DNA of 63,083 nt, the filler included, from Stramenopiles sp. TOSAG23-3 (Eukaryota): assembly GCA_900128585.1 (NCBI GenBank). It is 7 parts of 7 records of this genome, joined end to end, with 100 filler letters (N's around TTAATTAATTAA, not from the genome) between each part and the next. Parts side by side here need not be neighbours in the genome. Positions count along the whole stretch, not along the records: positions 28,719 to 42,958 come from LT642579.1; 6 more parts are not named here. One strand, given 5' to 3'. Below are positions 20,369 to 59,216 of the stretch, piece by piece. The notes beneath the pieces are model-generated. The model had not been told where the DNA came from, made no database searches, and saw nothing but the letters and a program-made list of their open reading frames with translations. The position numbers were made by a program, and so were the translations under genes. The stretch's first letter is position 1. Every line of letters begins with the position of its first letter.

Positions 20369-20779
20369 TTTGGATAATAAATTATTATTTGCTTAAAGTT
20401 GGGCATCTCTTCTTTTGTTATTTATTACCTGTTAGTTCGTCTGTTAAAAATATTTCCTTTGTTTGTTGGTTAGTCCTAATAATAATTTATATATAATTAT
20501 TATTTGTTGTTCTTTTTGGATAATTTGTAAGTTCAAACACAGGCCACAGCATTGAAATAAAATTTTAAAGTTTATAACTCCTTTTTTAATTTTTTTGGAT
20601 AATTATATTATTTGTTGTTCTTTTTGGATAATTTGTAAGTTCAAACACAGGCCACAGCATTGAAATAAAATTTTATATATAAATTATAATAAAACTTCAA
20701 TTTGGATAATAAATTATTATTTGCTTAAAAGTTGGACATCTCTTTGTTATTTACCTGTTAGTTCGTCTGTTAAAAATAT
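20369..20779 (+). repeat. Local direct duplications arranged A-B-B-A (units about 75-85 bp)
   Basis: A at ~20369-20452 and ~20701-20779; B at ~20492-20566 and ~20599-20675. Confidence 0.8.
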
Positions 20780-21251
20780 GTGTATTTTCTTTTTTTTTAT
20801 TATATCCTCGTTCGTATTGTATATTATTTTTGAATGGTTTTTATTAAGCCTATAATAATACTATTATTTCAATAATGATGTTTTTTACTACTACCACCGG
20901 TATAGCATCATTCTACAATGGCCACTTCTGATCTTCTTTCTTCTTCGCTACTATAATTATTATTTATTTATATTTATTATTAGTAGTCGTCTAAGAAATA
21001 ATAATAAAATATAAATAATAATAATTAATACCACCGCGGCCGGACCCACCGGTATCTTTTGTTTTGCACAATATGAAAGATGCAAAAATTAAACATTTTA
21101 GTGTGCTTTGGAAGATAAAGATCAAGAGAGAGAGAGAACAAGATTCTATATATTTATTGAAGCAAAAGAAATCGATACACTCAAACAAACTCACCCACAT
21201 AAACAACCCCCACAAGAGGAATCGAGAGCTTTATTACTGTTCGGTCGGAAA

Positions 21252-23231: not shown

Positions 23232-23766
23232 TTCTTTTCAGCAAAGAGCAAACAAACTTCTCCTGAAGAAGAAAACTATCATCCCCCCAAAAAAATCGGA
23301 GTGATTCCATATTGAGTTATAAAAACACTTAACACAGTACAACAATATTATATTTAATAAGTTCTATTTATATATGAAATAAATATATTGATATTAAGGT
23401 TTAAGGACAACATATAAATTCTCCGTCCGCGCATCAGAGATAGAAGAAGTGTACGGAGGAGGATCTTCTTCTCTCATAATTTTTTTATTATTAATTATTT
23501 ATCATCATCTCTCTCTCTCTCCCCCTCAACAATAAAAGAATCCAATGATGATGTTGTTCAATCCTGTACTACCGGTACGTCGTTTTGTTCCGAGTACAAA
23601 AGATTATGTATAATGATATAATGAACCAATCGATTACCCGCCACATGACAGAAAGTGCAACAAACCCCCCCAACCTTCCGTACATATTCCGTAAAATACA
23701 CGGAGGATTCTGCACTCGATTTCATATTCGCGTTTGAAAATCTTCCCTTGCTTTCCACCGGTGAAA

Positions 23767-24954: not shown

Positions 24955-25120
24955 GAGAGGCATTTTGTGTAAGAATCTTCATAAAATTCTTAAGCTAAGA
25001 CGTTCTTACGTGTGCGACGAAGTACTCTTATTATCGTACACTCACCCCTACAAAATATTTAAAAAATGTTCGCAATTCTTACGAAGTACGAACGCTCGTA
25101 CTCGTAAGAAACACCGACTC

Positions 25121-27265: not shown

Positions 27266-27915
27266 AGTCCGTTTCGTTCCCAAACCTTCCCAACGAAAAC
27301 AAGAGCATGCGCAAAAAGGTTTTTTAATATCTAAAGAACACCGACGGTTGATGATTGAATCCGGCGGTGGTATAATATAGAAGAGAAGCAACAAAAAACA
27401 AGAAAAAAGAAGAAAAGAAAAAAAAACAACAACAACAGATAATAATTATTATAAAATTAATCAATCGCAAAACGAATAATGCTGCTACCTTCTTCTTAAT
27501 TAATTCCTTCTTCTTCTTCTACCTTTTTATACTTACTAATTAGGGCTAATAACATGGAGTATACGACATAATAAGAATACATCTTAAATTGAGCCAATCA
27601 AGTAGAATAACTAAAATCCCCTGGCAGAGTGTCACATTGTATTCTTAATTTAATATATAACTATAAATAATATTTTAAAATGGTGGTTCGGCGAAGAAAT
27701 GATCTGATTGATTATTTATTAAATACATAATTCACATTATAAAGTAAAGAGTAAAGAGTAAGTCATCTATTTCCAAAGAAGAAGAAAGAAGGATGAAACT
27801 TTCATGGACTTTATTAGACGACTATAAATAATTTAGCCTATTGAGCCTGTTACCAGTACTAACGTAATGTAAACGTAAACGAATGAATATAAAACAAAGG
27901 GATATATAATAGAAC

Positions 27916-28611
27916 TTATATGCTCGTGGCTTTTTTGTTTTTGTCAGTGTAAAGTTCCAACCCGTCTCTTTCTACCAAAATCTTGACAGATTGATGCATA
28001 TTGATGACATCATAGACAGCATCATGGTGTTCCGTTTCTTCCATTTCTTCACCCGTGGCAAAACGATACAATTCTTTCAAGGTAGGATTCTTGAGTCTCC
28101 CTTTTGGGTTTCTGGCACCAACGATATGTTTCGTCGATTTCATGGTACAAACGACTTTCATCTTTTTCTCCATATGACGCAACATGTCATCACAATGGTT
28201 ACGCACCAACTCACTTTTCAAGACATTAACATCAAATGCAGCATTGTGTGCGGCAACATAACTGGCTCTCGAAAACAAAGGATACATATCTTCTTGCATA
28301 CATTGTGCAAACTCCATTCCTTGTTCCAAAGTCTGTTCTTTGGTAATACCATGTATCTGGTGACTTTCCGCAGATATGTCAAAATCATTCGCTTTGATGA
28401 AAGCAGATTGTGATTCCAAAGGTGTTAAGTCCTTTGCATCACATAACATTGCAGATATCTGAATGATTCTGCAGCTGTTGTACTTTGTCAAATCGCGATA
28501 ATGGGGTGTTTTCCACGGATTCCTTTCATCTCTTTGGGGCAACCCGGACGTTTCCAAGTCGATGAATACGATGCATTTTGGCGCATTGTCTATTGGAAGT
28601 CTTTCACTCAT
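27916..28611 (-). CDS. DEDDh 3'-5' exonuclease (DnaQ/epsilon-like)
   Basis: ExoI DLETSGL, IHGIT, ExoII AHNAAFD, ExoIII HDAVYD. Confidence 0.92.
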   Translation of the reverse strand: MSERLPIDNAPKCIVFIDLETSGLPQRDERNPWKTPHYRDLTKYNSCRIIQISAMLCDAKDLTPLESQSAFIKANDFDISAESHQIHGITKEQTLEQGMEFAQCMQEDMYPLFSRASYVAAHNAAFDVNVLKSELVRNHCDDMLRHMEKKMKVVCTMKSTKHIVGARNPKGRLKNPTLKELYRFATGEEMEETEHHDAVYDVINMHQSVKILVERDGLELYTDKNKKATSI

Positions 28612-28618
28612 TGTGTTC

Positions 28619-28718: not shown

Positions 28719-28797
28719 ACATACGTTGGGTCGATACGAAGAGATTCGCCTTTGTTCCCGGTGAGATTTATGCGACTGTGGCCCTCCAAATATTTTG

Positions 28798-29356
28798 TGG
28801 TGTAGAAACGTACCACACGAAGAATCATGAACAGATAAAGCATCTCTTGTTGGGTCATGTTCGTGCCATTCGAGGACACCCGGATTTAAAAGACGCATAC
28901 ATAATTAACTTTTTTGAATCCAACCTCGGATTAGAAGCCTCGCATATGCAGCATATGATACGGAATGAAAGACGATGCTATACACAGTACGAGAAAGGAA
29001 AGTGTGGGGTACTGACGACCAACGAACGGAAGGAGAATTACACGCACGCCTTTTTGAATTATTTCAACACGGAAGCAGTCCATTTTTTGAAAGACTGGGT
29101 GTGCGTGAATCCATTCGAAGACGCGAACGAAAGGCATACAAAAATAAAAGATGAACTGAAAAAACAATTATTAACTTTTCAAAAAATGGTGCTTACAAAC
29201 GACAATGCTCCCTATAAGATAGCAAAGCACGTATACAGTGGTAAAGTTAAACCCGGGATGAACGACGATATCATCATGACTATACTGTTCACAACATGGT
29301 GGAGCATTGAATTCATGCAAAAGCGTATTCAAGCTCCCTATGAAACCTTTATTTAA
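28798..29356 (+). CDS. Terminase large subunit, C-terminal RNase H-like nuclease domain of herpesvirus UL15 type; 5'-truncated
   Basis: FFESNLG corresponds to UL15 AVEGN; YSGKVKPGMNDDIIM corresponds to UL15 SGK...DDL; the first acidic motif is missing because the gene is cut near 28797. Confidence 0.8.
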
Positions 29357-29613
29357 AACTCGGCTTCCATGCTAAAGGTATTGGCAACCTCCTTGTAGCC
29401 GCCTACGTACACACCATCCTTAAACACCATAGGGAAAGAGGATGGAGACTTATCGGTCAATGACCAGATAAAATCAAGAAATTCATCGACTTCTTCAAGG
29501 TATTCATCGCAGTTGACGTACTTTGCTTTTGGAAGTAGTTTTTTCACCTCCGTACAAGACGGGCAAAGTGATTTTGTGTAAATAGTGTATCCTTCGGTTG
29601 GTTTGATGTACAT
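29353..29613 (-). CDS. Glutaredoxin
   Basis: YTIYTKSLCPSC, SFPMVF, YVGGY. Confidence 0.92.
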   Translation of the reverse strand: MYIKPTEGYTIYTKSLCPSCTEVKKLLPKAKYVNCDEYLEEVDEFLDFIWSLTDKSPSSFPMVFKDGVYVGGYKEVANTFSMEAEF

Positions 29614-29750
29614 TGTTTATAGTGTTCTATTAACGTATAAGTAGTACCAATAAATGATTTTTTACAGTTTTCACATTTTACCACTTGAGGCATTTGATTA
29701 CACTTGAAGTTACTAATATACTGGTCACACTAATATACTGGTCACAACTA

Positions 29751-30090
29751 CCCACTTTTTACGATGATGTGTAGGTCATCAGAAAAGTCGCGTGCCTACC
29801 ACAAATTAAATGCCCACTTTTTACGATGATGTGTAGGTCAACAATTCCCTATCTAAAGATATTTAGTCTACATTTTAGAGAAATTCTGCACTTCCATAGA
29901 TGCCCACTTTTTACGATGATGTGTAGGTCAACATTTCCCTATCTACAATATTTAGTCTACAATTGTCATCATAAAAGTCTACCACAAATTAAATAAATCA
30001 TTTCCATATCTACAATATTTACATTTGGAGGATCAAGATGATGTGTAGGTCAACATTTCCCTATCTAAAGATATTTAGTCTACATTTTAG
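29751..30090 (+). repeat. Left repeat array: 28-bp cccactttttacgatgatgtgtaggtca x3 plus a partial copy, with repeated secondary modules
   Basis: Copies at 29751, 29813, 29903 and partial at 30037; module acatttccctatctaaagatatttagtctaca follows three of them. Confidence 0.95.
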
Positions 30091-30117
30091 TAGAAAGTTT
30101 CAGTGTGTTTCAACGCA

Positions 30118-30205
30118 CTAATAATAATTAATAATAATTAATAATAATTAATAATAATTAATAATAATTTATATAATTAATAATAATTAACAATAATAAA
30201 AATTA
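30118..30205. repeat. Almost pure AT tract of 10-bp ataataatta units
   Basis: Directly visible, immediately after the left array. Confidence 0.9.
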
Positions 30206-30332
30206 ACAAGAATTTATAATAAGTAATAATTGCATCTAAAGTTACCGTACTTGTTAAAGAACCAAGAAAGAGACAGTTGAAGTCTATTTTCAACTATATA
30301 TAAGTGCGAAAAAAAGGAAACTTTTGAAAAAA

Positions 30333-32105
30333 ATGGAAATCGAAACAAAAGTCGAACAACACGCACCTCCTCCGCGTCTACCGTGGCGCTCGCTACGTAG
30401 ATGGAAATTTGTGGCGGCGGCCATCGCGCTCGTTGGCCTACTCGTAGGATGCGTATTCCTATTTGTTGCCTACCTCTTCGGACGAAATACGAAGCTCGGT
30501 CGCCCGGTTGTTGTGTTTGTATTATGCATGTTCACGGCCGTGCTTGCTTTCATTTGTACACTTTACATGAAATTTCGTAAAGCCTTTGCCGGAGATATTG
30601 ACGAAAAACCGTACGATCGACGGTGGCCTACTAAGAAACTATTTGGCCTCGACCTCGACCCGGCTCCGCTGTACGAAATACTGTCACCAAACGGCAAGTA
30701 TTACCTAAGACGACTGTATGGCGTGGAAATATTGGAAAGCGCGTATCAAATCTATAACTTTGGTTTGTTCGCTTGTAGGTTAGGCCGCCCATACCTTACG
30801 ACATATTGCGGAGTTATGACCACCGCCGCAATTTTTCAACTCTGGCAAGTTCGATTCGTAAGAAAACCAATTGACAACACAGGGAAAAATCTGGAAGTGA
30901 TTGTGGATATATTCTTAGAGCTCTGGTGCACGGCATATCCTGTCATTATCATTTATTTCGTGCACGAAATTTATTTCACCGATTCGGAGATTGTTCAAAT
31001 CTTGTTCATCCCGTTTTTTGCCTTTGTCATGAAGCTTCGGCTGGTAATAAACAACGAAATCGTACTCGTCTTGGATAACGTGAGGACTATCGAAGCAACC
31101 GCCCATTTGCCGGAAAAGGAGAAAAAGAAACGGCGACGAACGTCCTTTGCACTCAGAGAAGAATCACTCAAGAGAATTCAAAACGAAAAATTTGGGATAC
31201 GATGGAGACAAGGCCTTTTGTTTTTTTATGGGTTGTTTGCGTTGTTTTACGTAGCACTCTTCTTCGTTCAAATCGGGAATCTCTTTATTCCGCAACCGGG
31301 CCATTTTGACTATTGTCTAGTAAACGTTCCTTCCTGCACGCACTGGTTTTATGGCGAGAACAACTGCTTGCATATAAGTCACTTGAGAACGACGGACGAA
31401 CCGTCAGATCCCATTCTGAAGAAGTTTTCGAGTAGCACCGCCGCCGTGAAGATTGGGGTCAGCAATTTAAACGAGTTGAAGCTTTTGGAGCCATTTCAAA
31501 AAAGTCGAAAGATAGTAATATATAAAAGCAACGCGTCAAGAATTGATATCGACTTGAACGATTTTAAAGAGCTTATCACTGTGAATTGGAATTCGTTCAA
31601 TGCGACGACAGCACACACGTCGTTTTATGAAAACAGCGTAAGGCGCGTAAGCTATTCGGACATGCCAAATATGGTGATAAAGGATTTTAAACTACCGAAC
31701 GGGGAAGTGTTTGAGTTGATGCGTGTTGGGACGCGTTTAAAACGTATTGAAGCCCCGGTCCTGTTCTCGTTAACGCTAGCCAATTACGGAATCGACAAAT
31801 TACCAGAGGGGTTGAATCTAAAAGGGGCTGTTGCACTGAAACTACCGGGTAATAATTTTACGTCGGTCGATATACCAACAAGACATGTACTGGATTTACG
31901 CGACAATCGTATCACAGAGTTTTCGACAAGAGCAGAGTATAGCTATGGATTCGGAAACCCGACTTGTCCGGACGATTGGAAATGCGATAAGTTTTGTCAC
32001 CCATATTGTAGTAATTTCATGCACTTGAAGGAAGAAGAAAAATCGTGTACGTTAGATTGCGTGCGTTACTGTGGTAAGGGTAAATGTAAACATTTTTTAA
32101 ATTAG
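30333..32105 (+). CDS. Multi-pass membrane protein with C-terminal leucine-rich repeats and Cys-rich cap; homolog of 57385..59216
   Basis: About 6-7 hydrophobic segments; LRR-like LTLANYGIDKLP, LKLPGNNFTSV, LDLRDNRITEF, FGNPTC; shared NGKYY block. Confidence 0.85.
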   Translation: MEIETKVEQHAPPPRLPWRSLRRWKFVAAAIALVGLLVGCVFLFVAYLFGRNTKLGRPVVVFVLCMFTAVLAFICTLYMKFRKAFAGDIDEKPYDRRWPTKKLFGLDLDPAPLYEILSPNGKYYLRRLYGVEILESAYQIYNFGLFACRLGRPYLTTYCGVMTTAAIFQLWQVRFVRKPIDNTGKNLEVIVDIFLELWCTAYPVIIIYFVHEIYFTDSEIVQILFIPFFAFVMKLRLVINNEIVLVLDNVRTIEATAHLPEKEKKKRRRTSFALREESLKRIQNEKFGIRWRQGLLFFYGLFALFYVALFFVQIGNLFIPQPGHFDYCLVNVPSCTHWFYGENNCLHISHLRTTDEPSDPILKKFSSSTAAVKIGVSNLNELKLLEPFQKSRKIVIYKSNASRIDIDLNDFKELITVNWNSFNATTAHTSFYENSVRRVSYSDMPNMVIKDFKLPNGEVFELMRVGTRLKRIEAPVLFSLTLANYGIDKLPEGLNLKGAVALKLPGNNFTSVDIPTRHVLDLRDNRITEFSTRAEYSYGFGNPTCPDDWKCDKFCHPYCSNFMHLKEEEKSCTLDCVRYCGKGKCKHFLN

Positions 32106-34198
32106 TTAAAAGAACAACCGCCCAAACACGTGTAAAAGATCGCCACTACTAACAAAACTGAATCCTTGTATGGCGACACCAATATATTCTTTGCCCCATC
32201 GTCCACGCGGTGAGCTTTAAGCGATGTGCTCAGCGTCACGAGATAATGTATCAAAATGCTCCAGTGCTTTCCGGTCAAGTAACAATAAACCGCGAAGCCC
32301 GTTACCGGTATCATCATCGCCCATTTTCTTTCCATGCAAAATATTTGGAGGGCCACAGTCGCATAAATCTCACCGGGAACAAAGGCGAATCTCTTCGTAT
32401 CGACCCAACGTATGTTCTCACCGGGAACAAAGGCGAATCTCTTCGTATCGACCCAACGTATGTAGACAATCGTTACCACTGTCCAGAAGTAGTGCGGACT
32501 GAAGAATAAAATTCTCAAAACAACGGCTACACCAACAAAGAATCCAAGGAGAAACTGTTCGTCAGACTCGTCTCGGTACGGTATGTACAGATCCATCGCG
32601 AAGATGACAACGCTCCAAAAGAGAACTTCACACCATGTCTGCTTTTTCACCTTCACCTTGTTCTTCCGCTCGGCGACCACTTTTTCGTACTCCGCCAACA
32701 CTTTTTTACCTTGAAAGTGCATTCCTTTGTATTCCAACTCTCGGCTACCGGTGCGACGTTCTCTTACGTCTATCGAAGTTTCTTCTGTCTCTTCAGGTGG
32801 ATCAGCAGGTGGATCAGCAGGCGGATCACCTACAGGCCTGTCTCCCGAATATAACAATCCGTAAGAATATCGATTGTGGATTCGTTGTCCTAACAGTGTT
32901 AAGTCGTCATGGATACCGTCTACGTTCGTTATCACAATATTCATTGTGACTTCTTCGTACCGTAATAGTTTTGGAAATACTTTCCACGGTGGCAGTTTCT
33001 CGAAATATATTATTCGAGCGTCCGCATTTTCTCCATAGTTTTCAATCATCTTATTGGACTCGTACACTTTTAATCTTTCATGAGTTGCGCAATGCCAGTC
33101 GTACATAAAGAACATAGCGTCTTGGCCATACCGTCGGTATAGTTCGTTTGCGGCCACCCTAAGAGAGTTTTCGTCTGGGTCGTGTCGTGGCATCTTCATC
33201 CAGAATTTAAAAACTCGAAAGAAAAATGCCTCCTTCGAATGACGCGATATTGTTACGGGTTCCGCCATAAAATCGTCGTGTTCTGCATGTAACCAGTCTG
33301 GTATTTCGTTTTTAATGATCGAGTCGGGGTCTGAAGGTGTAAGTGACGGTTCGGTTTCATCTTCTTTTGCAACGTAAGCCGAATGATATGCCGATTTCTC
33401 TTCTTGCTTAATTTTTTTCACAAATTCGTCCACTTGCACCGCTTGCACGGCCTTTCTTTTTTTCTCTTTTTTCGGACTATCAAACAAACCGGGCGGGATA
33501 AGCCACGAATCATCGTCCTCCTCCTTCTCCAGAGATACAATCAAATCCTCCATGACGTCCAAGATACCCAACGGTGAATCCGTCCAAATTTGGTCGCATG
33601 CAAATTCTAGCCACCTGTCGCGTGGAAGCTCCATCATACACTTTGAACGTACGCGTTGTAGTTCGTCGCTACCGGGCCAACTCCCATCTTTTAAAGCGAC
33701 AGGTCCCTGATTTTTTGGGACTTTAAGAACGTCGTACGATGTTAAGGAACGCACAAACATACCCTTTAGCTCGTGGGAACATTTGATTGCTATCGTACGG
33801 TTCTTCAGTCGATGACGTGGCCGATCGTCCGTTTCGTTTACCACAACGCCGTTTCGATCTACTGCAAGCGCAAGTATCCACGGCAAAGCGCTACGCCAGC
33901 TTACAGACGTTGTTACTATGTGTTCCAACAGCAAATATTTGCACGTGTTTTCAAATTTTATTGCATTGAACAAGACGCGCTCGTTGTCCACACTCAAGTG
34001 GCAGTTGTAAGCGAGAAATCCATCGTCTTGTCTCCCGTGCGGACAACCGATATTTGTCAACGTTTGCTTCAGGGACGTCGATTCCAGTTCAGTGATCGGG
34101 TCTACCAGCGCACATCGGTCCTCGTACGTCGGGTGGCCATAGATAACCTTGACATTCTCAGGCGCTAGATCAAGTTCAAAATCATCGAAAGGCTCCAT
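32102..34198 (-). CDS. Hypothetical viral protein with several C-terminal transmembrane segments
   Basis: 700-aa ORF; hydrophobic C-terminal region; in-frame 48-bp duplication and DPPA x3; stop overlaps the LRR gene stop by 4 nt. Confidence 0.75.
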   Translation of the reverse strand: MEPFDDFELDLAPENVKVIYGHPTYEDRCALVDPITELESTSLKQTLTNIGCPHGRQDDGFLAYNCHLSVDNERVLFNAIKFENTCKYLLLEHIVTTSVSWRSALPWILALAVDRNGVVVNETDDRPRHRLKNRTIAIKCSHELKGMFVRSLTSYDVLKVPKNQGPVALKDGSWPGSDELQRVRSKCMMELPRDRWLEFACDQIWTDSPLGILDVMEDLIVSLEKEEDDDSWLIPPGLFDSPKKEKKRKAVQAVQVDEFVKKIKQEEKSAYHSAYVAKEDETEPSLTPSDPDSIIKNEIPDWLHAEHDDFMAEPVTISRHSKEAFFFRVFKFWMKMPRHDPDENSLRVAANELYRRYGQDAMFFMYDWHCATHERLKVYESNKMIENYGENADARIIYFEKLPPWKVFPKLLRYEEVTMNIVITNVDGIHDDLTLLGQRIHNRYSYGLLYSGDRPVGDPPADPPADPPEETEETSIDVRERRTGSRELEYKGMHFQGKKVLAEYEKVVAERKNKVKVKKQTWCEVLFWSVVIFAMDLYIPYRDESDEQFLLGFFVGVAVVLRILFFSPHYFWTVVTIVYIRWVDTKRFAFVPGENIRWVDTKRFAFVPGEIYATVALQIFCMERKWAMMIPVTGFAVYCYLTGKHWSILIHYLVTLSTSLKAHRVDDGAKNILVSPYKDSVLLVVAIFYTCLGGCSFN
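32368..32463. repeat. Perfect 48-bp tandem duplication inside CDS
   Basis: tctcaccgggaacaaaggcgaatctcttcgtatcgacccaacgtatgt x2. Confidence 0.97.
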
Positions 34199-34357
34199 GA
34201 CCACGCTGTGGGTAGTTGATTTTTCCTTGTTTTGAGTTCATCTTTCCACTTTCTAGGTCGTTTGGCAGATTTATCATATTAAGTACGGTCCGCAAAGATT
34301 GTGTTTCTGGTAGGAAAAAAATGATGAATAGTTTAAAATAATAGAGACATTTCTACC

Positions 34358-34625
34358 AACACATCATCGTAAAAAGTGGGACTGTTTCTATACTAACACA
34401 TCATCGTAAAAAATGGGACTAATTTTATACTAAAACATCATCGTAAAAAATGGGACTGTTTCTATACTAACACATCATCGTAAAAAGTGGGACTAATTTT
34501 ATACTAAAACATCATCGTAAAAAATGGGACTGTTTCTATACTAACACACCATCGTAAAAAATGGGACGTTTTGATATATTTTTTTTAAAGTAACCTGTAC
34601 TAACACACCATCGTAAAAAATGGGA
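34358..34625 (-). repeat. Right repeat array: six tandem 37-bp units plus a displaced seventh; core is the reverse complement of the left-array motif
   Basis: Units start at 34358, 34395, 34432, 34469, 34506, 34543 and 34602; core acacatcatcgtaaaaa(g/a)tggg. Confidence 0.97.
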
Positions 34626-34927
34626 TTATTTAGGCCGCGGAGGTTTTAGTGGCCACTCGTTTGTTGTAACGAAAAGACCTATTTACCGTACAATTAGTAT
34701 ATGGAAATACTTTAAAAAGAAAACAACACTATAAAATATGCCAAAAAAACGATGAATGGTGTAAGCGTATTCCCATGCAAAAGCGCTGTTTTCCGAAAAA
34801 AAAACGTATCATCTATTATTAAACCCTACGGTTGACCCTATATTTTCACTACGATTTGTCTTCATTTTCAAAGGTAAAGTACATTAAACATTTGACTATC
34901 GTCACCTTCAAGTAGAAAAGTCTAGAA

Positions 34928-35080
34928 ATGCGTCTGAGAATTCGAGTAGCATGTAAATAGCAGGGCGATTGATGCGTCTGAGAATTCGAGTAGCATGTAA
35001 ATAGCAGGGCATTAAGAAGAATAAAAATATAAATCTACACTGACCTAAAGAATAAATTTTATAAATCTACACTGACCTAA
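34928..35080 (+). repeat. Two pairs of direct repeats (39 bp x2 and 21 bp x2)
   Basis: atgcgtctgagaattcgagtagcatgtaaatagcagggc at 34928 and 34972; tataaatctacactgacctaa at 35028 and 35060. Confidence 0.92.
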
Positions 35081-35173
35081 CGACACGGTATTATACCCAA
35101 TACTTCGGTATTTCGACCGGTATGTAAAATTACCATTTCTCTCCGTATTCAAACAACAAAAATAACAAAAACA

Positions 35174-35734
35174 ATGAGTTTAACAAGAACAATGAATCTA
35201 ATCAAAAACATCGACGAATTTGAGAATAAGAACTGGCGAAGTACATCCCCGGGAAGTTTTCATCCCAGCGATGCGCCACAAGCCTTTTTGACGACGCTCA
35301 AAGATAGTGTGGAGGTTACTCTTGATGAGCTTGCTGTGGGCGCAACCTTCTTCTACGAGTCGTTTCCAACCTCCTACCCCGGGAAATATTATAAGTTTGA
35401 AAAGGACAGAATGGACCGGAAGGGGCAAGTCTGCACATGGCTTTCGAAAGACAATGAATTTATGATGAATAAAATGGAAGACACCTACTGTTTTTCGATA
35501 TATGACACGGAGACGAAAGTCTATGTCCTGCTCGACGAGAAGCAACGCTCTTTTTCACCGGACCCGGGCGACGACGACGAGATGGACTTCTCTCTCAAGT
35601 CATTCGATGCGAGTGGGTTGTCGGTATCCTCGAACGACCGTATCGCCGACCTTGAGAAGCAGGTGGCAATTTTGACCGACGAAACGAATTGGTTGAAACA
35701 GCAGCTCCACAAATTTTACATTACTAATCAGTAG
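35174..35734 (+). CDS. Hypothetical viral protein with short C-terminal coiled coil
   Basis: 186-aa ORF after A-rich leader; RIADLEKQVAILTDETNWLKQQL. Confidence 0.7.
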   Translation: MSLTRTMNLIKNIDEFENKNWRSTSPGSFHPSDAPQAFLTTLKDSVEVTLDELAVGATFFYESFPTSYPGKYYKFEKDRMDRKGQVCTWLSKDNEFMMNKMEDTYCFSIYDTETKVYVLLDEKQRSFSPDPGDDDEMDFSLKSFDASGLSVSSNDRIADLEKQVAILTDETNWLKQQLHKFYITNQ

Positions 35735-35819
35735 ACGTATATATATATTTCCACCCCACAAACGGACGAAGCGTGTAAAACAATTATAAATCGTATTTAT
35801 ATTCTTTAGACATTTTTAA

Positions 35820-36578
35820 ATGAATACGTTTGAACATACCAGACGTCCTCGTTTTTTTCAAATCCCGAAACAAACCGAAGAATTTACTATTACGTGGAAT
35901 GGGAAACAAGTAAAAGCGCGCGGTAGTAAGATACTCTACGATCTCTTAATCCAATTCAAAAGCGTAAAATACTCTCAGACCGAAGTAAAAAGTAAAGATA
36001 CTCTGATCGTGCAAACACTACAAACACAGTACGGAACCGTCGATAGAACCAATATGCTCTTTGCGCAGATGCAATTAAAAGCACAAGAAGGCATCCTCGA
36101 TTCCATGTTGACCGAAATTAATACCGTTTTCTTTCAAAAGCGACTGCAACCGATTTTAGGTAAGATCGACATTATCTTCAGCACGTTAGAAAGCGGTATC
36201 GCCGGGTCCACCACCATTCTGAAAAACACCGTTCTTATTGAAATAAATTTACTACAATTTATCGCGTGGTTCAACGTTTTGAAAGGTCAACGAAAACAGT
36301 CCATGGGTACAGAGAACTGTGACTCCATTTTGAAATGTATATTGAAAACGCTTCAACACGAACTTGTCCATGCCATTTGTATACTCTGCTCGCCCACTAT
36401 CTATGTCAATGGCAAGACTATAGGTAGCTTCTGTACTCTTAATGTAAAGGGCGATACTAGTAATGCTGCCACTGGACACTCTACATGGTACATGGATTTA
36501 CTGGGGAATATTTTTGGTCAGAAAAATGACTTCCATGACAACTATACGTACCGTCAGAAAGCAAAATTAAGGGTATAA
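35820..36578 (+). CDS. Putative SprT-like zinc metalloprotease
   Basis: TLQHELVHA followed downstream by GHSTWY, the HExxH...H arrangement of SprT-like domains. Confidence 0.6.
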   Translation: MNTFEHTRRPRFFQIPKQTEEFTITWNGKQVKARGSKILYDLLIQFKSVKYSQTEVKSKDTLIVQTLQTQYGTVDRTNMLFAQMQLKAQEGILDSMLTEINTVFFQKRLQPILGKIDIIFSTLESGIAGSTTILKNTVLIEINLLQFIAWFNVLKGQRKQSMGTENCDSILKCILKTLQHELVHAICILCSPTIYVNGKTIGSFCTLNVKGDTSNAATGHSTWYMDLLGNIFGQKNDFHDNYTYRQKAKLRV

Positions 36579-36599
36579 ATATTATTTATTAGTATCTAT

Positions 36600-36932
36600 A
36601 TGCCTAAAGTTACTGAACAAATATACGAAGACGCCAAAAGCAAATTTTTAACCTTACAACCTGAAATAAATGAGATGGCGATGAAATTAAAAGAACTGAA
36701 GAAACAGAAGACCCGGTGCGTGTCCATTATCAAACGCTATATGGTCATGCAAGATAAATATTTCCTTAAAGTTGGACCATTTGAAGTATCTAGAGAAAAG
36801 GTACAACGTTGTGGCTTTAACGAGAATAGAATGCGTAAATTTTTAAGGAAGAAGCAACTTGAAGAAGATTACAAGGAAGAATACACTAAAATCGGAACGA
36901 AATTCAAGCTAAACCGGGTAGACGCCGTGTAG
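36600..36932 (+). CDS. Small basic coiled-coil hypothetical viral protein
   Basis: Tightly packed ORF with TATAAA 26 nt upstream. Confidence 0.7.
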   Translation: MPKVTEQIYEDAKSKFLTLQPEINEMAMKLKELKKQKTRCVSIIKRYMVMQDKYFLKVGPFEVSREKVQRCGFNENRMRKFLRKKQLEEDYKEEYTKIGTKFKLNRVDAV

Positions 36933-36962
36933 ACCTATAAATACTACTAAATTGTACAGTAA

Positions 36963-37511
36963 ATGCCTAAATGCGTAAATCTTAATAAACTAATTACAGA
37001 TAACAAAAGAAAACAGTTTACCAGATGCGGTAATATTAAATTAATGTTTGATACACAAAGTATACTAAATAACCTAACAGCAAGAATAAGACGTCAGGAC
37101 ACTGTATTTGTTATGGGGTGTGCAGCTTGGTTTACGAATTCCCGTATTATTAAGGCCCTATCAGAATTAAAAGGTGTGTCCGTTATATGTACTCGAGATA
37201 AAGTAGCTCGACTAAAAAGTACGAAACTAAAATACAGAACACTACCACAGCATGACGGAATACCGACTGTTTTAGTAGTTGGATGCGGGAGAGGACGGAA
37301 GGCTTCTTTAATGCACCACAAATTTTTAATTGGTATGAACGAAAAGCAAATACCAATTTGGGTTAGTACGGGTAGTTTTAACTTGACGGAATCAGCAACC
37401 TCTAACATAGAAAACATGATGATTATCGAAAACAAGGAAATAGCAAAAGCATTCTTAGAAGAATTTCAACGACTGTACCCCTTGGCGAAAAAACTTAGTC
37501 TTAAAGTCTAA
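36963..37511 (+). CDS. Phospholipase D superfamily single-domain nuclease (Nuc/Zucchini-like)
   Basis: AAWFT, MHHKFLI, TGSFNLT, NIENM; the canonical HKD Asp is absent. Confidence 0.88.
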   Translation: MPKCVNLNKLITDNKRKQFTRCGNIKLMFDTQSILNNLTARIRRQDTVFVMGCAAWFTNSRIIKALSELKGVSVICTRDKVARLKSTKLKYRTLPQHDGIPTVLVVGCGRGRKASLMHHKFLIGMNEKQIPIWVSTGSFNLTESATSNIENMMIIENKEIAKAFLEEFQRLYPLAKKLSLKV

Positions 37512-37530
37512 ACTAAAGAGAAAATCAACT

Positions 37531-38436
37531 ATGAGTGTGGAGCCCGGCCCCATGGAGCTACGGGTCTTGGTAGACCAAGCGTACCAAAGAGTGAACGACT
37601 ATGACTTAATCAACGCGGCTCTTGCAGGCAAACGAGTATGGGTTCAGTTACCGGATGGCGTGTACTATTTGGCGACAGTAAGGCGCGGCTTTACGTACAT
37701 GCCGGGCGAGGAGGACGAGTTTAGGACACACGTGGAACTCGAGTACGCGAACCCGGACGAGTCCTCTATGGTTAGTTCAACAGAGAATTTTCGACACGAC
37801 TCGTTTATTATCCAGAACTCGCAAATAGTTGATTTTAACAACTTTTTGGAAGCAGAAAGAGGGCGAAGGGCAGCCGTCATTGTACCTAGAGCGTTCGAGT
37901 ACGATGGCGCGTACCTTATCGGCCACTTTCATCCTGATAACGCTCTCCTAGTTGTCCTTCTGAACGACCCCGAAACGGACCACCCCCTTATTACTCGGGC
38001 AGAGTGGGGTATGTTGCAAGAATACCTTCATAAGGAGACGGTAGCACGCGAACGATACTTAGTTTACAACGTATTTGGACGAGAAAACGACCACACTATG
38101 TACAACGAACAAGTCTTTCCGGCGTATGAAGAGGAACGAGTAGCACGAAATCAAATTTTTGAACATTTTTTGCACGAAAGCATACGGCAAGATTCCCCCG
38201 GAACGATCTCACGGTTTCAGTTGTGTCACGGAGTACTAGAGTCAACGACGCGCTCACCGTTTATGGATACTCACGCGGCACATTGTCCTTTCGTCGTGGT
38301 GAAAGCCAAGGACGACGATATTCTCTTTGAACGAGAAAACCATTGGGTTGTCTATCCAGAGGATGCACCGGAAGCGCAGCAGTTTGTCGAAACCGAACCT
38401 TCCATGGAAATCGAACCGGAAGGTATACCGGAGTAA
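37531..38436 (+). CDS. Acidic hypothetical viral protein
   Basis: 301-aa ORF filling the gap in a co-directional gene run. Confidence 0.7.
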   Translation: MSVEPGPMELRVLVDQAYQRVNDYDLINAALAGKRVWVQLPDGVYYLATVRRGFTYMPGEEDEFRTHVELEYANPDESSMVSSTENFRHDSFIIQNSQIVDFNNFLEAERGRRAAVIVPRAFEYDGAYLIGHFHPDNALLVVLLNDPETDHPLITRAEWGMLQEYLHKETVARERYLVYNVFGRENDHTMYNEQVFPAYEEERVARNQIFEHFLHESIRQDSPGTISRFQLCHGVLESTTRSPFMDTHAAHCPFVVVKAKDDDILFERENHWVVYPEDAPEAQQFVETEPSMEIEPEGIPE

Positions 38437-38470
38437 ATAAGATGTATAAGTATCCTTAATATGTTTTAAA

Positions 38471-39276
38471 ATGGGCCAAACGAATATGACTGCAAGACAA
38501 CTAATGAACACCAAGCCATTTAAGGTATCAGAGAACACGCTTGTTAATTCTATTCCAGTGGTGTGCTACGTTGTAAAAGCGGGATTAATATTTTACGTCA
38601 AGGCGTTTATAGCACGTAAATTTTCGTTCAATCGTGTAGATATATATGGTAACACGCCCCTCCATTACGCCGCCAGTACGAAACGATCGAAACTTGTTAG
38701 TCTGTTTGTTGAAATGGGACTGAGTACTTGTCTAACTAATAAACGCGGCCAGACGCCATTAATGATTGCGATTTTAAACAAACGGTACGACCACATTCCT
38801 ATGTTAAGAGACGCAATGTTTGTCCGGGACGCTCAGTACAATGGCCCCATTCACCATGCTATTTTAGAAGAAGACGTTCGATTGTTGCATGCTCTCGTTT
38901 TAAATACACCACCTCTACCAAAAACATGGATTCTAACCTTTACACATCCAAAAGACTACCATTTAAATTATTTCCCTCAGGCTGAATCGTTGCCAGCTCT
39001 TTCGTTGGCTATTTCTTATATGAAATTTACCATGGTAAAGGAATTGATACAGCTGGGAGCAATGCATCGTATAGCAATCAAACACCATTGAGAATTTTGA
39101 ACGGAATCGCTAGAAATTTGCGGTATGGTGGTACGTTTAAAACAGATAGGTGTACACAAAAAGACGTGAAAAGAATGTGGGGTGTCTTAGAAGACGATAC
39201 GAATATCAATCGTACAACGTACAACTTCTCGGATAAACATACTGGATTATTAAGTGGGAATTGTACATATATTTAA
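38471..39276 (+). CDS. Ankyrin-repeat protein with probable frameshift at ~39060 (ORFs 38471..39091 and 39088..39276)
   Basis: GNTPLHYAA, GQTPLMIA, NGPIHHA; LIQLGA continues in the shifted frame as NASYSNQTPL. Confidence 0.8.
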
Positions 39277-39620
39277 TTAAATATTCTTTTTACATCGTCT
39301 ATCAGACAATCAATTCGAGCTTTCATGGTTATATCGTTTTCATATGTTTTTTGCAACGATTGCAGCCCTTTTATAGAATCGCTTACGTGTGTTTTTACTC
39401 TTTCGGCCTGTGTTTCTAACAACGCCTCCGCGTCTTTGTAAAGATCCTTTATTCTATTAAAATCGGATTCTCTATTTGCTCCATAATACCAACGGTACAA
39501 AAATTCTGGTATAGTAGTGGAAGGATTGATTTCAAAATGCGTTCGTCTTGTTCCTAACTTTTCAAAAGGCTGTAGTTTACTTAGGATCTTTAAATTGACC
39601 CATATGGATTCTTCTTCCAT
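39273..39620 (-). CDS. Hypothetical protein resembling a small family seen in large eukaryotic DNA viruses
   Basis: NLKILSKLQ...RWYYGANRE...GLQSLQKTY pattern (recalled resemblance only); TATAAA 26 nt before ATG 39620. Confidence 0.65.
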   Translation of the reverse strand: MEEESIWVNLKILSKLQPFEKLGTRRTHFEINPSTTIPEFLYRWYYGANRESDFNRIKDLYKDAEALLETQAERVKTHVSDSIKGLQSLQKTYENDITMKARIDCLIDDVKRIFN

Positions 39621-39621
39621 T

Positions 39622-40194
39622 TTAAATATTCTCATCCGCATTTATACCAAACAACGATTGTTGCTCTTCATTTTCCATAAAACTTGGCTTTTTACCAACT
39701 GGCAGAGAAATAGGTATTCTGGGCATGCTAATTGCTACTATGTAAATGGTATGGATAACCTGCACCACTATAAATCCAACTATGTCCATTTCGGTCAATA
39801 AAAAAATACCAAATACAATAATATTTACGACCGACAAATCCATTCGTAAGTCTCTCCACGATTTTTCCTTGAATTCTTCTGTGCATGATTCGTCCAAAGT
39901 GGTGAACGAAAAAAGAGAAAACAAAACATACAAAGTAGATCCAACCAGAAGAAGAACGCCACTGCCAATACGGTTGTTAAAATACTGATCTAGTAAAATG
40001 CACAAAATATTAATCAGTGACAACATCCCTAGGAAAGCAGGTCGGTCTTCGTACGCATACCATACGAATAACAAAATCGTGGTCAGTCCAAACCCGTACA
40101 ATAGTGGATTTTCATACCATACCCATTCGCCGATTGCATAAATACATATACTTATCCCGGTAAAAAGACTGTACACTAACGACTCGTAATGCAT
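39622..40194 (-). CDS. Small multi-pass membrane hypothetical protein
   Basis: About 6 hydrophobic segments; TATAAA 28 nt upstream. Confidence 0.7.
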   Translation of the reverse strand: MHYESLVYSLFTGISICIYAIGEWVWYENPLLYGFGLTTILLFVWYAYEDRPAFLGMLSLINILCILLDQYFNNRIGSGVLLLVGSTLYVLFSLFSFTTLDESCTEEFKEKSWRDLRMDLSVVNIIVFGIFLLTEMDIVGFIVVQVIHTIYIVAISMPRIPISLPVGKKPSFMENEEQQSLFGINADENI

Positions 40195-40222
40195 ACTAAT
40201 GCAATGATTTAATATATTTATA

Positions 40223-42749
40223 CTACTTAAAAGTACCTACTTTTACACGCACAAACTTCTTATCTTTTAAAACATTCTTTGCCTTATTTGCATCCTCAGC
40301 AGACAATTTTTCTATTGTCTCTTTGTATGTATTTATTCGGTCTACGGAACCGTACGCCAGTTTTGTGTGATGAATAGCGTTTGCAAGAGCGCCGGGGGTA
40401 TCGTATTGTACCATAAGACTACCAGTAATATTTTGTTTTTGAATTTCAACTTCATCAACAGTCAATACATCATTTTTCCATTTCGCCAACACCTTTTCCG
40501 TCTCTACAATACCTTCCTCTAACTTACTAGGAGCGAATGTTCCGGTGACAACTAATAGACCACAACCTTTCATTTTCTTCAATTGAGCGTTTATGCCATA
40601 TGTTAACCCATGCTTATCTCTCACTATCTTCATCAATCTACCTGTAAAACCATTCCCCAAGACACCTACGGCTAGTTTTAAAGCATCCGAATACTCCACA
40701 ACCATACCATACTTTAACACGGTAGACGATTTTCCCTCCATGTGTTCCTCCACATCCATCAATTTCTCTACCAAACTATTTTTGTACTCGAGGTTCCATG
40801 TGGCCTTGTTCTCCAGAGGAATACTCTCTCTTGAAATTATAGTTGCGACCAGAGGCGCGGACTCTAACTTGGAATGAGCTTCCTTCACTTCATTCAATTT
40901 CATCCCGCTTACCCGGTAGCACAACTCGTCCATGGAAACCATATAGTTTGGATCGTCCTTCTTAAAAAGACTTTGGTTCAGTTTTATTTTCGCAATCGTG
41001 TTTACGTTGTTTTTTGAACCGTACAATTCCGACACCCATTTTCGTTGCAAATAGTTGAAAGTTTTTTCCTCCAACAAAGGTTTCTGTAGTTCGCCCATTA
41101 TAAAATTACTAGCAACGGTTCGTTGTGATACTGGAATCGTAACCATGGAATGAATGGCCCCGGAGGACGCCATAATATTTCGTTGAATGTTTTTCTCGGA
41201 AATAAAATTGGCGACCATTGGTTCAGTGCAAGCTACTTTCTTTACTTTAAACCCCTTTGTCATCATCTTTGATAGCATACTATTCACGGCGTAGGACTTT
41301 TCTGCCGTTTGAAGCGATACACGCACGTCCATTACATCCGATTCGTACGGTGTCCATCCCTCTTGTGCTTCAAAATCTTTACTTGCAACCTCTTTGATAT
41401 CGTTGATATCTTTAAAGGGTTTTGTATTATACACATTGTATGTTGCCACCTCAATTTCGGTCGCTGGCGTTTCATTGGCTTGAAGTCCCCTCAAATATCC
41501 CACCGTACTTCGGTCGTAATTAAATATATCTTTGGAAACACGCACGATATCGTCTATCGTTACTTCTCCTAATATTTTATTTCGCTGAAACACATCAAAG
41601 GCGTCACCACGCGCAATTGCCTCGTTGATTGCCATTGCAGTTTTCCGCGTGCCCATCATCTCATTCTTCCATTTATTCTTTAAAACAGTCTTTGCACGCT
41701 CTAACGATTCACCATCGTTGAACGATTGCAAGTCGCGTGTTATTTCCATAAGTTTACTCTCGGCAGTTTTTAATGCTTCTTCGCTATTTTGGTTTGTCGT
41801 AGCCCAGAGACAAAAGAGATACGGGTCTCGCATACGCTCCCATTCGGCTAAGATATCGTGGATATGACACGACTGATCTTTTTTATACTTCTCAGACATT
41901 GCGGTGGGACCATGGGCAATAATCTTAGATATAACATCCAGTACAATAGCGTCCTTGTGTAAGCCATTTGGGGCTTTGAATGCAGCACACATAAGCGCAC
42001 AGTTTGTTGGACGTTTAATCATCACTCTACGTTGACCCATTTGAGTGGGCTCTGTAGTTAGCATCTCAGGTACGGCCTGTTTATCCTCTTTGTCAAAGTA
42101 TTTGTCAATCATCTTTAATACATCGTCCTTCTTAAAATTACCACAGAAGGTATAGGTCGCGTTAGATGGCCTGTAAAACGTATCGTGGAATTTCTTTAAG
42201 GCCACGGCGCCGATTGTTTCCACCTCGCTTTTAAATCCAATCGTAGAGTGATGATACGGATGGGCGTTGAAAGCAGTTGCCATAATTTGCTTTTGAAGTA
42301 CCTCGAAATCATTATTGTTTCCACGTTCCATCTCATTACGTACTACAGTCATCTCTTTATCCAATTCAGACTTGCACAGCAGAGGCTGGTACATTCGATC
42401 GGCTTCTCGTGCAATAACATCCTCTAAATGTTCCGATTCTATCCGATTCTATTACAGAAAAATAATTCGTTCTGTCATTGTATGTTGTCGCGTTCATGTA
42501 AGCTCCCATCTCTTCCAGTTTCCACATACCATTTTTTCCGTGAAACTTTACACTACCTTTAAACATACCGTGTTCTAAATAATGAGTTCCACCCCTTACA
42601 CCCAATCCCTCGTTTCTCGACCCGACGTGATAGGTAATATTGGCCGTAGTAACCTTTAATCCGGGTTTAGGATAGAGTAGTACTGTCAACCCACTTTTGT
42701 GCTTTAATTCGTATAAATCATTCGCTTCTCGTACAGGGGTAAACGACAT
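40223..42749 (-). pseudogene. M16 (insulinase/PqqL-like) zinc peptidase interrupted by a 10-bp tandem duplication
   Basis: HYLEH (HxxEH), NATT..DRTNY, FYRPSN, VRDKHGLTYGI; tccgattcta x2 at 42432-42451 shifts the frame and removing one copy joins the two ORFs. Confidence 0.88.
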
Positions 42750-57382: not shown

Positions 57383-57384
57383 AT

Positions 57385-59216
57385 TCAACGAGGGCAATCG
57401 CCTTTATCGTATTGACAAGATTTTGTATTGCATCCCGAGTCCAACTTTGGTTTAATGCCGGGTTTTAAACGGCTGGAATAGTAAAAATTGTAATCATTAT
57501 CATCGCAGGCGGAATCACCAAGAAAATAAGAGGGGCAGTCTATTGAGCACTGTCGTTCACAAAGCCCTTTCGACATTTTCAAATTATTGGGCAAGACCAG
57601 TTCTTTGCACAGTGGGTTGCCTTCAAGGTAAAAGTACTCCATGTTGTTCCACTGGTTTACCGATTCAGGCAAATTGGTCAAATTGTTATGCCGCATGTCT
57701 ACCCTTTTTAGCAGTGCTAAATTGCCTATTGATTGTGGTAAAAACCGTAATGTATTGTTCGAAATGTATAGATCCTCCAATAGCAGCAATTTTTCTATGC
57801 CACTTGGTAAAGCAACAAGGTAATTCTGGGAGACCTGAAAATAAATTACACTGTGCAAGTTTGCGATGGTCTTTGGCAACGCGTTTAGACGATTGTCATT
57901 AGCTATTAAGTGAGTTAAACTTTTCAAATCCCCAACACTATCTGGAAGCGCTACCAAATTATTGTTGAAGACAAGTAATTTCAGCAATTTGTTAAGCTCT
58001 CCTAAGTCGTCTGGCAATGTGCCCAGCCTATTTCCAAACACTCCCAGCCATACCAATCGTTTGTGGCTCTTTCCAAATGACGGGGTCAATTTTTTTAATT
58101 CGCCAGTGTATATTCCCAACTTATACAGCGCTGATAATTTTCCAAATGATTCTGGCAATGTTGCTTGGGAGTAATTTGTCATTTCTAACACAGCACAATC
58201 GCACTGTCCAACGATCGGGTTGTTACAAAATGGAACTGGTACTTGACACCCGTTCCATACCTCTTGTGTAAACAGACTATTGCATTCTTCGGTTGTTGGC
58301 TGTGAGGCTAGTTGAATACACACAATGGCGACAAAAGTCAAACAAAAACCAACGTTGAGCGCGATGATGCTGTAGCGAAGCCATTTTGGAAAATTTAGTA
58401 ACTGTGCCCGAAAGGCCGCCTTGTTCTGCGCCAAACCAAGGACGCTGTTGCGCTTCCGCGAGCGCCTTGCTTCGTTTCTTTCTCCGGCAAGCCTCTGCAA
58501 ATCAATCTTAAAGTAATCTTCCCAAACATCGTGCAATTTCGAGAGCAACGACAGGGTGGGGAAGAGCAGTATAAAAATTAAATCTGAAAGTTCCAGCGGA
58601 AGTCCAAGTACAAATCGCACATACACAAGTGGGAATGCAATGCAAAACTTGTCTGTTACTATGTCTAACAACAGCAGTTTGTTCCGTACGTCCTGTGAAC
58701 CTATGGACAAGGTGTACCGAACATTGATCAACAACTCAAGAACCAGAACGGTACAGAAAAATGACGTCAGTACCACCGGAATCAAACACAGGTAAATCTT
58801 GATCAACGCATACAATTGCTGTGCGTGCTCGTACGCTTCTGTGAAATACATTTTAGACATATAATACTTTCCATTGACGTCAAAAACTTCATTGTAACGA
58901 GCGAACATGGACTTTAAAGCAATAGCAAATTTCGTCTGGACACAATCGTTCTCTTTTTTGCTTTCCTCTACTTTGCTGCCTCTTGGGCAAATTGCTATGA
59001 ACGTGCGCACGGCAAAGGAAGCAACTATCAGTTCTGGGAGAACACCAAGCATAAAGAGAACCCATAGCCCGTCTCGTTTGAATCCATGACTGTAAGAATG
59101 AAAAATAAATAAATTGACACCGCCCACAATCAGCATGATCAAAGATATCAACAGGCTTTCGCAGCCCCATATGATCCGGCATTTCTGGCACCGAGAAAGT
59201 TGTGAAGTTTCCCCTT
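57385..59216 (-). CDS. Multi-pass membrane protein with canonical LRRs and C-terminal LNR/Notch-like Cys motif; 5'-partial
   Basis: About 7 hydrophobic segments; LxxLxxxNNxLxxLPxxIG repeats; CSIDCPSYFLGDSACD...CNTKSCQYDKGDC; frame open to the contig edge. Confidence 0.92.

Follow-up and report, generated by a model that had tools for sequence, protein, structure and literature searches.

Does this DNA hold a viral version of a cellular receptor-like gene, and if so, was that version taken from its host recently or long ago? The question is raised by a stretch of 63,083 bases (hereafter the window) from Stramenopiles sp. TOSAG23-3, assembly GCA_900128585.1. The original prediction held that one open reading frame (ORF) in it, here called V, is viral, that it resembles a multi-pass leucine-rich repeat (LRR) receptor-like gene on 'contig 5', here called H, and that it may be a captured mimic or decoy, which could form part of a recognition or superinfection-exclusion system. 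The window consists of seven unrelated pieces joined by spacers of N44 + TTAATTAATTAA + N44 and is not a single locus. V lies on piece 3 and H on piece 5 (Table 1), and shared presence in one window is all that links the two as virus and host. We find that V is probably a working gene of a marine giant virus and an old capture from a eukaryotic family of multi-pass LRR proteins, not a recent copy of H.

V and H are collinear homologs, as predicted. Composition-adjusted BLASTP aligns them across nearly their full length (74.7 bits, E 3e-18, 138/593 identities or 23%), and all six blocks quoted in the original prediction are aligned with each other. Both proteins were then cut at their common CxVxVPxC motif and compared by region. 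The membrane modules alone give the strongest match (E 1.1e-13, 22% identity across 297 residues). The cap region, defined as the first 70 residues past the motif, matches with E 8.7e-5 and the Cys tails with E 0.006; the middle LRR part alone gives no pairwise BLASTP match. The similarity is thus significant outside the LRRs and is not carried by the repeats, and V has kept the membrane module, as had been claimed. Profile comparison by hhalign of the V family (8 sequences) with the H family (18 sequences) gives a probability of 99.7% and E 1.5e-26 over 423 columns, and a V-type-only profile scores all 18 H-type proteins P0008-P0025 at 59.8-80.5 bits. Collinear polar motifs kept in both proteins are NGKYY, E132, E135, Q139, D192, the RRR loop and CxVxVPxC. 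Alignment A6, which joins the membrane modules of V-type and H-type proteins, has no variation at G121, Y123, Y124 and Q139, and the CxVxVPxC motif, CLVNVPSC at residue 328 of V, occurs in every one of P0001-P0025. Repeat-bearing membrane proteins such as these can inflate alignment scores, but the adjusted BLAST statistics, the polar residues among the conserved motifs, the hhalign result and a confident joint structure model (below) leave hydrophobic composition and repeats with virtually no standing as the source of the match.

The two proteins differ most in their repeats. H matches the Pfam families LRR_14, LRR_8, LRR_13 and LRR_4 and has seven matches to an LRR regular expression; V matches no Pfam LRR family beyond noise and has zero. 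Its relatives P0003 and P0224 likewise match no Pfam LRR family, and P0219 matches LRR_4 only, at an E of 0.0096 that fails to reach the cut-off. The C-terminal LNR match of H is weak (15 bits vs a Pfam cut-off of 21.2 bits), the H-type protein P0253 clears that cut-off with 24.5 bits, and V has no LNR match. As predicted, the Cys-rich end of V is the shorter, at about 50 amino acids (aa) vs about 80 in H, and shows no sign of an LNR. PF26605 (WLGC) appeared in no Pfam scan, with a copy of Pfam that is unconfirmed to include it.

Piece 3 is giant-virus DNA (Nucleocytoviricota), as synteny and a promoter-like motif demonstrate. Its ORFs are short and tightly packed, and Pfam assigns a glutaredoxin, a PLD-like protein, an ankyrin protein and an M16 peptidase, the others being without assignment. 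About 90 environmental proteins without names are related to the M16 protein at 36-99% identity; the best matches after them, which are named, are bacterial at 28-31%. An alignment of the environmental M16 proteins (A1) matched six contigs in IMG/VR, 16-179 kb long, and IMG/VR scans with the single M16 protein or the single 698-aa protein of piece 3 gave no match. Whole records were taken for G001 (179 kb, with terminal repeats) and G004 (134 kb), and tblastn was also run against L002, L003, L005 and L006. Nine of 14 queried piece-3 ORFs (10 with both M16 halves) match G001, G004, L002, L003 and L005 at 25-81% identity. The order M16, small membrane ORF, 39273 ORF, ankyrin, PLD, 36600 ORF, glutaredoxin is kept, and the 28946 ORF is a further-off member of this block. 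Pfam scans of 72 ORFs of G001 found DNA polymerase B (PolB), Rpb2 domains, thymidylate synthase, protein kinases and an SNF2 helicase, as well as RabGAP-TBC, PI3/4-kinase, FYVE and RING. This gene set, PolB and Rpb2 included, identifies G001 as a giant virus of a eukaryote. G001 (loci L007-L015) also carries a heliorhodopsin and a GT64 glycosyltransferase.

A promoter-like motif independently ties piece 3 to the same viruses. In the 100 nt upstream of G001 and G004 ORFs, 7-mers like GTATATA, TATAAAT and TATATAA are enriched 8-9x, and we scored the motif as TATA(TA)A[AG] at -55..-16 from the ATG. It precedes 76 of 150 ORFs in G001, 57 of 116 in G004 and 7 of 13 in piece 3, V included. The corresponding counts are 0 of 18 on host pieces 1, 2 and 4 and 2 of 40 in five host-family loci, and random 40-mers contain it at 1.3-6.3%. 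V thus looks tied to the virus's own expression signals, judging by this upstream sequence. Piece 3 shows no enrichment in the Mimivirus-type early motif AAAATTGA, the core of the Mimivirus early promoter (0 copies).

V sits in a lineage-specific island, a region of variable gene content within otherwise syntenic viral DNA. The distance from the 36600-type ORF to glutaredoxin is 129-532 bp in 4/4 related records that hold both, vs 6,987 bp here. None of the four island ORFs matches the related viral records holding both flanks by tblastn, and V is absent from 4/4 whole related viral records searched. Glutaredoxin and the 28946-type ORF, adjacent here, lie 3-8 kb apart in related records.

Piece 5 holds the H gene only, so its cellular origin was judged from its relatives. 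The H ORF (57385-59151, minus strand) stays open up to the piece end at 59216, so that the 5' end is cut by the piece boundary; P0008, 92% identical to H, is 632 aa long. A word-index search with H returned 72 proteins, the first 18 of which (P0008-P0025) share the membrane module; two H relatives bear EukProt names, one of them 'Stramenopile-MAST_4'. Searching metagenome and whole-genome shotgun contigs with the H-family alignment gave 18 loci, which fall into groups of 8, 3, 4, 2 and 1 by shared contig-name prefix (assembly or sample). Pfam assignments among 49 ORFs neighbouring H-type genes include ubiquitin-activating E1, eIF2B-epsilon, Ras, a DEAD helicase, Whirly, peptidase M76, UCH and cNMP-binding proteins. 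Of 72 ORFs of at least 120 aa in these loci, only 3 non-family ORFs weakly resemble giant-virus ORF sets, and the viral TATA(TA)A[AG] motif lies upstream of 0/18 H-type genes. H-type genes are cellular and the family is multi-copy. The original prediction allowed that contig 5 might itself be viral, which would have made V and H viral paralogs; the housekeeping neighbours and the missing motif show the contig-5 gene type to be cellular.

The family is large. Profile A6 (the membrane module of both groups, with V-type C-terminal columns included) was searched against 1.84 billion representatives and matched 372 proteins at E<=1e-3, 277 at <=1e-10 and 139 at <=1e-30, or about 370 clusters at 50% identity. 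The ESM Atlas clusters nearest V, which are embedding leads and not alignments, belong wholly (100%) to Eukaryota and, among those of known phylum, mostly to Oomycota. LRR_8 and LNR, or a 'WLGC' domain, occur in some of them, and the automatic names of the Oomycota clusters are 'LNR domain-containing protein' and 'WLGC domain-containing protein'. Literature searches turned up no account of this multi-pass LRR family, which supplementary gene lists might name, and the accessible parts of PMC8163842, PMC2770060 and PMC3874173 do not mention it. On giant viruses of MAST-4, the one relevant result was PMC6792449, which, in its accessible part, describes a giant-virus assembly obtained from sorted cells that were predominantly MAST-4, host not established. 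Since the family is overwhelmingly cellular and V lies in an accessory island, we infer that V descends from a eukaryotic gene by capture.

How old is the capture? Scores against a V-only and an H-only profile, computed for the best 147 new A6 matches and P0001-P0025, set a V-type group apart. It consists of V, P0001-P0007, P0200, P0201, P0216, P0219, P0224-P0226, P0231, P0233, P0238, P0252 and three fragments. Its members have few or no canonical LRR motifs, compared with 4-10 canonical repeats in more than 100 H-type representatives, and, unlike H-type proteins, they lack the canonical LRR consensus, an N-terminal CxxC motif and an LNR end. The nearest relatives of V are P0001 (95% identity, assigned to the same virus) and P0002 (78%), and the next nearest are at 48-50%. 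All seven V relatives in the word index come from metagenome sources (lgn, ena, tara, metaclust) and none from eukprot, ncbi or jgi genomes, whereas H-type matches include these.

Trees were built on membrane-module columns, unrooted, from rows of 430 to 900 aa. FastTree (116 rows x 342 columns) separates 18 V-type from 98 H-type rows with support 100 and a stem of 0.97, the H-type rows forming two large groups. IQ-TREE under LG+C20 on 53 chosen rows recovers the same split (13 V-type vs 40) with SH-aLRT 100. It places H deep in an 8-row clade with P0009, P0011, P0013, P0016, P0019, P0020 and P0205, and the MAST-4-named P0015 belongs, in the FastTree tree, to the clade that corresponds to this one. 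The V-type clade splits into three subclades just 26-30% identical to V. At 18-23% identity, and with V in its own fully supported clade on a long branch, comparison of the sequences firmly indicates that V is not a recent copy of H. The proposed gene transfer between host and virus therefore stands in part: homology, a viral piece 3 and a cellular H agree with it, and recent capture from H does not.

The outer domain of V-type proteins is re-shaped yet conserved, and no decaying relic. Mean pairwise identity within V-type is 35% in the membrane module, 34% in the cap and LRR part and 45% in the tail; between V-type and H-type it is 18%, 18% and 28%. The LRR part is therefore as conserved as the membrane module, which argues against decay. 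The earlier description of the V repeats as degenerate thus holds for what Pfam and the regular expression recognise and fails as a statement about decay. At least 90% of 115 family members keep G121, C148, D192, P203, P227 and Q283, the cap residues C328, C335 and C345, D521 and R523 in the last repeat, and C545 and C551. Tail Cys columns are nearly invariant in the V-type clade.

An AlphaFold2 (AF2) model of V with 115 family members has a pLDDT of 92.4 and a pTM of 0.89. It has helices at 24-48, 58-86, 124-149, 152-172, 182-210, 217-255, 261-286 and 289-316, regular short strands at 328-538 and a tail of low confidence. Residues 322-555 of the model align to LRR structures with Z 15.8-12.9 and a root mean square deviation (rmsd) of 2.9-5.6 A over 185-255 residues (VIA-align), and the V-type part of profile A6 matches SHOC-2 LRRs with E 4e-5 in a PDB sequence search. 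The outer domain of V is accordingly predicted from the model to be an LRR solenoid. The membrane module matches no Pfam family, the PDB profile search with A6 matched LRR proteins only, and the module alone gave no usable named ESM Atlas match.

The hydropathy profile of V has five to eight hydrophobic segments ahead of the LRR. V and H share three strongly basic stretches, after helix 2, after helix 4 and around the KKRRR/RSRKR loop, which in V are residues ~78-123, 173-181 and 256-286. For these loops to share one side, helices 124-149 and 152-172 must both span the membrane, which gives seven crossings. By the positive-inside rule, the sequence suggests an inside N-terminus, seven crossings and a Cys-capped LRR outside. 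The outside placement fits the Cys-rich caps and, in H-type proteins, the LNR end.

How well does an old capture and a working viral gene withstand the alternatives? Several observations weigh against it. Piece 3 (14 kb) is without a hallmark gene in Pfam scans, and the nucleocytoplasmic large DNA virus (NCLDV) capsid family PF04451 was found in 0/4 related records, which are fragments 26-50% complete and in which the control was silent as well. The V-only alignment (8 sequences) gave a poor model (pLDDT 59.8), with which all Foldseek matches lay above E 1e-3, and the 115-member alignment behind the good model is dominated by H-type sequences with canonical LRRs. IMG/VR scans with V, the V family (A3), the H family (A4) and the subclades A9 and A10 found no V-type or H-type gene, and this one virus lineage is the only one in which V-type genes are seen to be viral. 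A 10-bp duplication in tandem leaves the M16 gene (40223-42749, minus strand) in two frames. The gene may be a genuine pseudogene, or the break may stem from amplification or assembly, and piece 3 could be an integrated, decaying copy or an error-bearing assembly. Were piece 3 an endogenous giant-virus insertion in a protist genome, V would be a fossil and not an active viral gene. That an intact, 99% identical M16 copy exists and that the adjoining 698-aa ORF has an in-frame duplication would fit such an insertion, which we nonetheless regard as improbable: the V ORF is intact, its 95% identical relative P0001 occurs on 8 contigs, all other piece-3 ORFs are open, 7/13 keep their promoter motifs, and no host DNA is visible within the piece. 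In addition, 18 more sequencing runs share 7-47% of words with it (word index only, reads unaligned). In all, 20 runs hold part of 29300-34300, two of them possible sources, and one oligo-dT RNA run holds 8% of its words; these index counts are evidence of neither expression nor habitat.

The most serious competitor, though clearly the less likely one, is that V-type is a cellular protist subfamily with a diverged LRR, from which V is a fairly recent pick-up, the other V-type proteins being cellular. In its favour, neither the IMG/VR scans nor the four related viral records yielded a V-type gene, V sits in a lineage-specific island, and its family is cellular overall. Against it stand the purely metagenomic sources of the seven V relatives and the drop to 48-50% identity beyond P0001 and P0002. 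Prokaryote genome contigs were also scanned for misbinned V-type genes, and none were found. The reading closest to the original prediction is that the virus recently copied a contig-5-type receptor as a mimic or decoy, that its LRRs are decaying and that only the membrane module matters. V and H do share their whole architecture and occur in one assembly window, and an approximately unbiased (AU) test does not reject an origin of V-type beside H (V-type forced with H's 8-row clade, a group picked after the tree was seen; delta lnL 21.2, p 0.159). V-type could thus have been captured within H's own clade and then have evolved fast. The 23% identity of V and H, the mean of 18% between the groups in the membrane module, the depth of the three V-type subclades and the conservation of the V-type LRR part nevertheless make a recent, decaying copy very improbable. 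A bolder possibility, which we think unlikely, if somewhat less so than an endogenous insertion, is that the whole V-type clade, with 18 representatives at 50% identity, is a giant-virus family of inverted-topology seven-helix proteins whose conserved, re-tooled LRR hijacks or blinds stramenopile surface sensing.

If V is an old capture at work in a giant virus, its protein would enter either the virion or, during infection, a host membrane, whether at the cell surface or where virions assemble, with the LRR facing out. The LRR domain would bind a conserved external partner, and the membrane module would act as in the cellular family, by signal relay or oligomerisation. V may replace or interfere with the host surface-sensing function of H-type proteins. 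A decoy for fast-changing ligands seems less likely, given how conserved the V-type ectodomain is. An unsupported possibility is that V also associates with host family members via its membrane module; a complex prediction for H-type and V membrane modules scored 0.01 vs a mark of 0.34, with alignments unused and no controls, and is evidence in neither direction.

Table 1. Features of the window, with positions counted along its whole length
Feature	Position	Strand	Description
Piece 1	1-14269
Piece 2	14370-28618
Piece 3	28719-42958		giant-virus DNA, holds V
Piece 4	43059-57282
Piece 5	57383-59216		'contig 5' of the original prediction; H gene alone
Piece 6	59317-61150
Piece 7	61251-63083
V gene	30333..32105	+	590 aa from ATG; viral membrane protein, V-type clade of the multi-pass LRR family
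V promoter-like motif	30294..30304	+	CTATATATAAG, ~30-36 nt upstream of the V start codon
V membrane module	30333..31292	+	residues 1-320; seven hydrophobic or long helices, conserved NGKYY, basic KKRRR loop
V Cys cap and LRR	31293..31952	+	residues 321-540; cap (CLVNVPSC...C) and diverged LRR solenoid; VIA-align, profile match
V Cys-rich tail	31953..32102	+	residues 541-590; GNPxCPDxWxC...C pattern, no LNR
H gene	57385..59216	-	cellular family member, canonical LRRs, weak LNR-like end
Glutaredoxin	29353..29613	-	Pfam PF00462; conserved viral flank, 56-63% identity in 5 viral loci
Island	29614..36599		~7 kb, lineage-specific; V and three further ORFs
698-aa ORF	32102-34198	-	island; ends where V ends
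186-aa ORF	35174-35734		island
252-aa ORF	35820-36578		island
Conserved viral block	36600..42749		small ORF, PLD-like, ankyrin, two small ORFs, M16 peptidase; synteny, Pfam

Several neighbouring features deserve mention. Beside V, the 698-aa ORF has no Pfam family, a multi-pass C-terminal part and an in-frame 15-residue tandem duplication (IRWVDTKRFAFVPGE twice). A 301-aa ORF at 37531-38436, between the PLD-like and ankyrin genes, is without counterpart in related viral records; these two genes are 48 bp apart in G001, which makes the ORF a second small lineage-specific insertion. The M16 duplication consists of TAGAATCGGA twice at 42430-42450, and the intact 838-aa copy is P0080, found elsewhere at 99% identity. 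For the contig behind piece 3, there is also a 47.9-kb relative. Eukaryotic genes on pieces 1, 2 and 4 (Pfam) are kinesin, MATE, phosphoglycerate kinase, TerD, M3 oligopeptidase, an RNase T-type exonuclease, myotubularin and NDUFS4. The ORF at 16267-16773 (minus strand) is almost all K/R/E runs and probably low-complexity DNA, no gene. Piece 6 encodes, at 59382-60710 on the minus strand, a multi-pass membrane protein of 442 aa that has a tail rich in Ser and Asn and matches no Pfam family; piece 7 is a reverse transcriptase.

Among the H-type loci, L027 holds two tandem genes (5432-7453 and 9998-12043), indicating local duplication in the cellular family. About 100 nt upstream of one H-type subgroup are strongly conserved across contigs of 33-49% GC (L024:9873-9982, L025:316-425, L032:9795-9904, L035:960-1069, L039:331-440 and, partly, L030). 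This stretch contains CACCGTCTAATAAA, then two copies of AAAATTGA right before the ATG. A second subgroup (L031, L034, L038) has AATGCGGCACCCTCAAA in common upstream. From their sequence, these stretches may be family-specific regulatory or 5' untranslated region elements.

Giant viruses pick up host genes, and viral LRR proteins are known. What is new here is that a virus encodes a multi-pass, receptor-like LRR protein whose host counterparts form a large, uncharacterised family. That family, multi-pass LRR(-LNR) proteins in about 370 clusters, with MAST-4 and oomycetes indicated by protein names or the taxa of the nearest clusters, is apparently undescribed and is brought to light by this locus. 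One re-shaped yet constrained member persists in a giant virus linked to an uncultured marine grazer, which points to a cell-surface pathway that the virus needs to touch. Under the bolder possibility above, viral V-type proteins on infected stramenopile cells or viral membranes could stop feeding, stop further infection or bind the next host, and would form a virus-host receptor pair in grazers that are not yet culturable. Were V-type viral throughout, it would be a rare case of a virus-owned receptor family evolving beside a host receptor family. The TATA(TA)A[AG] motif is a convenient means of telling viral contigs from host ones in single-cell or binned assemblies and, together with the syntenic core, offers simple tests.

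Among known systems, the H-type stramenopile LRR-LNR proteins of MAST-4 and Oomycota are closest to V, with the same membrane module, CxVxVPxC cap, LRR solenoid and Cys-rich end. V differs from them in being virus-encoded and in lacking Pfam-recognised LRRs, the N-terminal CxxC and the LNR end. LRRC8/SWELL1, a volume-regulated anion channel, likewise carries its membrane domain at the N-terminus and its LRR at the C-terminus, and it is the top whole-chain Foldseek PDB match for the V model (E 7.7e-4). LRRC8 has a pannexin-like pore domain of 4 transmembrane helices and a cytosolic LRR without disulfide caps, whereas in V there are about 7 helices and the LRR is Cys-capped and probably external. 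As the two whole chains do not superpose (TM-score 0.19, rmsd 37 A), we regard the likeness as an architectural analogy and do not accept homology. LGR-type G protein-coupled receptors (GPCRs) also combine an LRR with seven helices, and LGR4/5 ectodomains are among the LRR fold matches. The order is reversed in V, whose LRR is C-terminal with a putative N-in/C-out topology, opposite to that of GPCRs; this and the lack of a 7tm Pfam match set V apart from LGRs and class A GPCRs. V is also no LRR receptor kinase, receptor-like protein or Toll-like receptor, being multi-pass (five to eight segments) and having no kinase, TIR or 7tm Pfam match (E<=0.1 for 7tm).

The best viral structure matches to V are soluble LRR proteins of giant viruses and entomopoxviruses in BFVD (E 8e-3 to 0.25), which match the LRR part only, over 105-397 alignment columns including gaps. 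None of the 50 listed BFVD matches reaches E 1e-3 or shows the membrane module, and one row, a phage tail-fibre over 624 columns at rmsd 62.5 A, is spurious. Poxvirus decoy receptors are an example of host-derived copies of surface receptors kept by a large DNA virus. They are soluble or single-pass and close to host genes, whereas V is multi-pass and very diverged.

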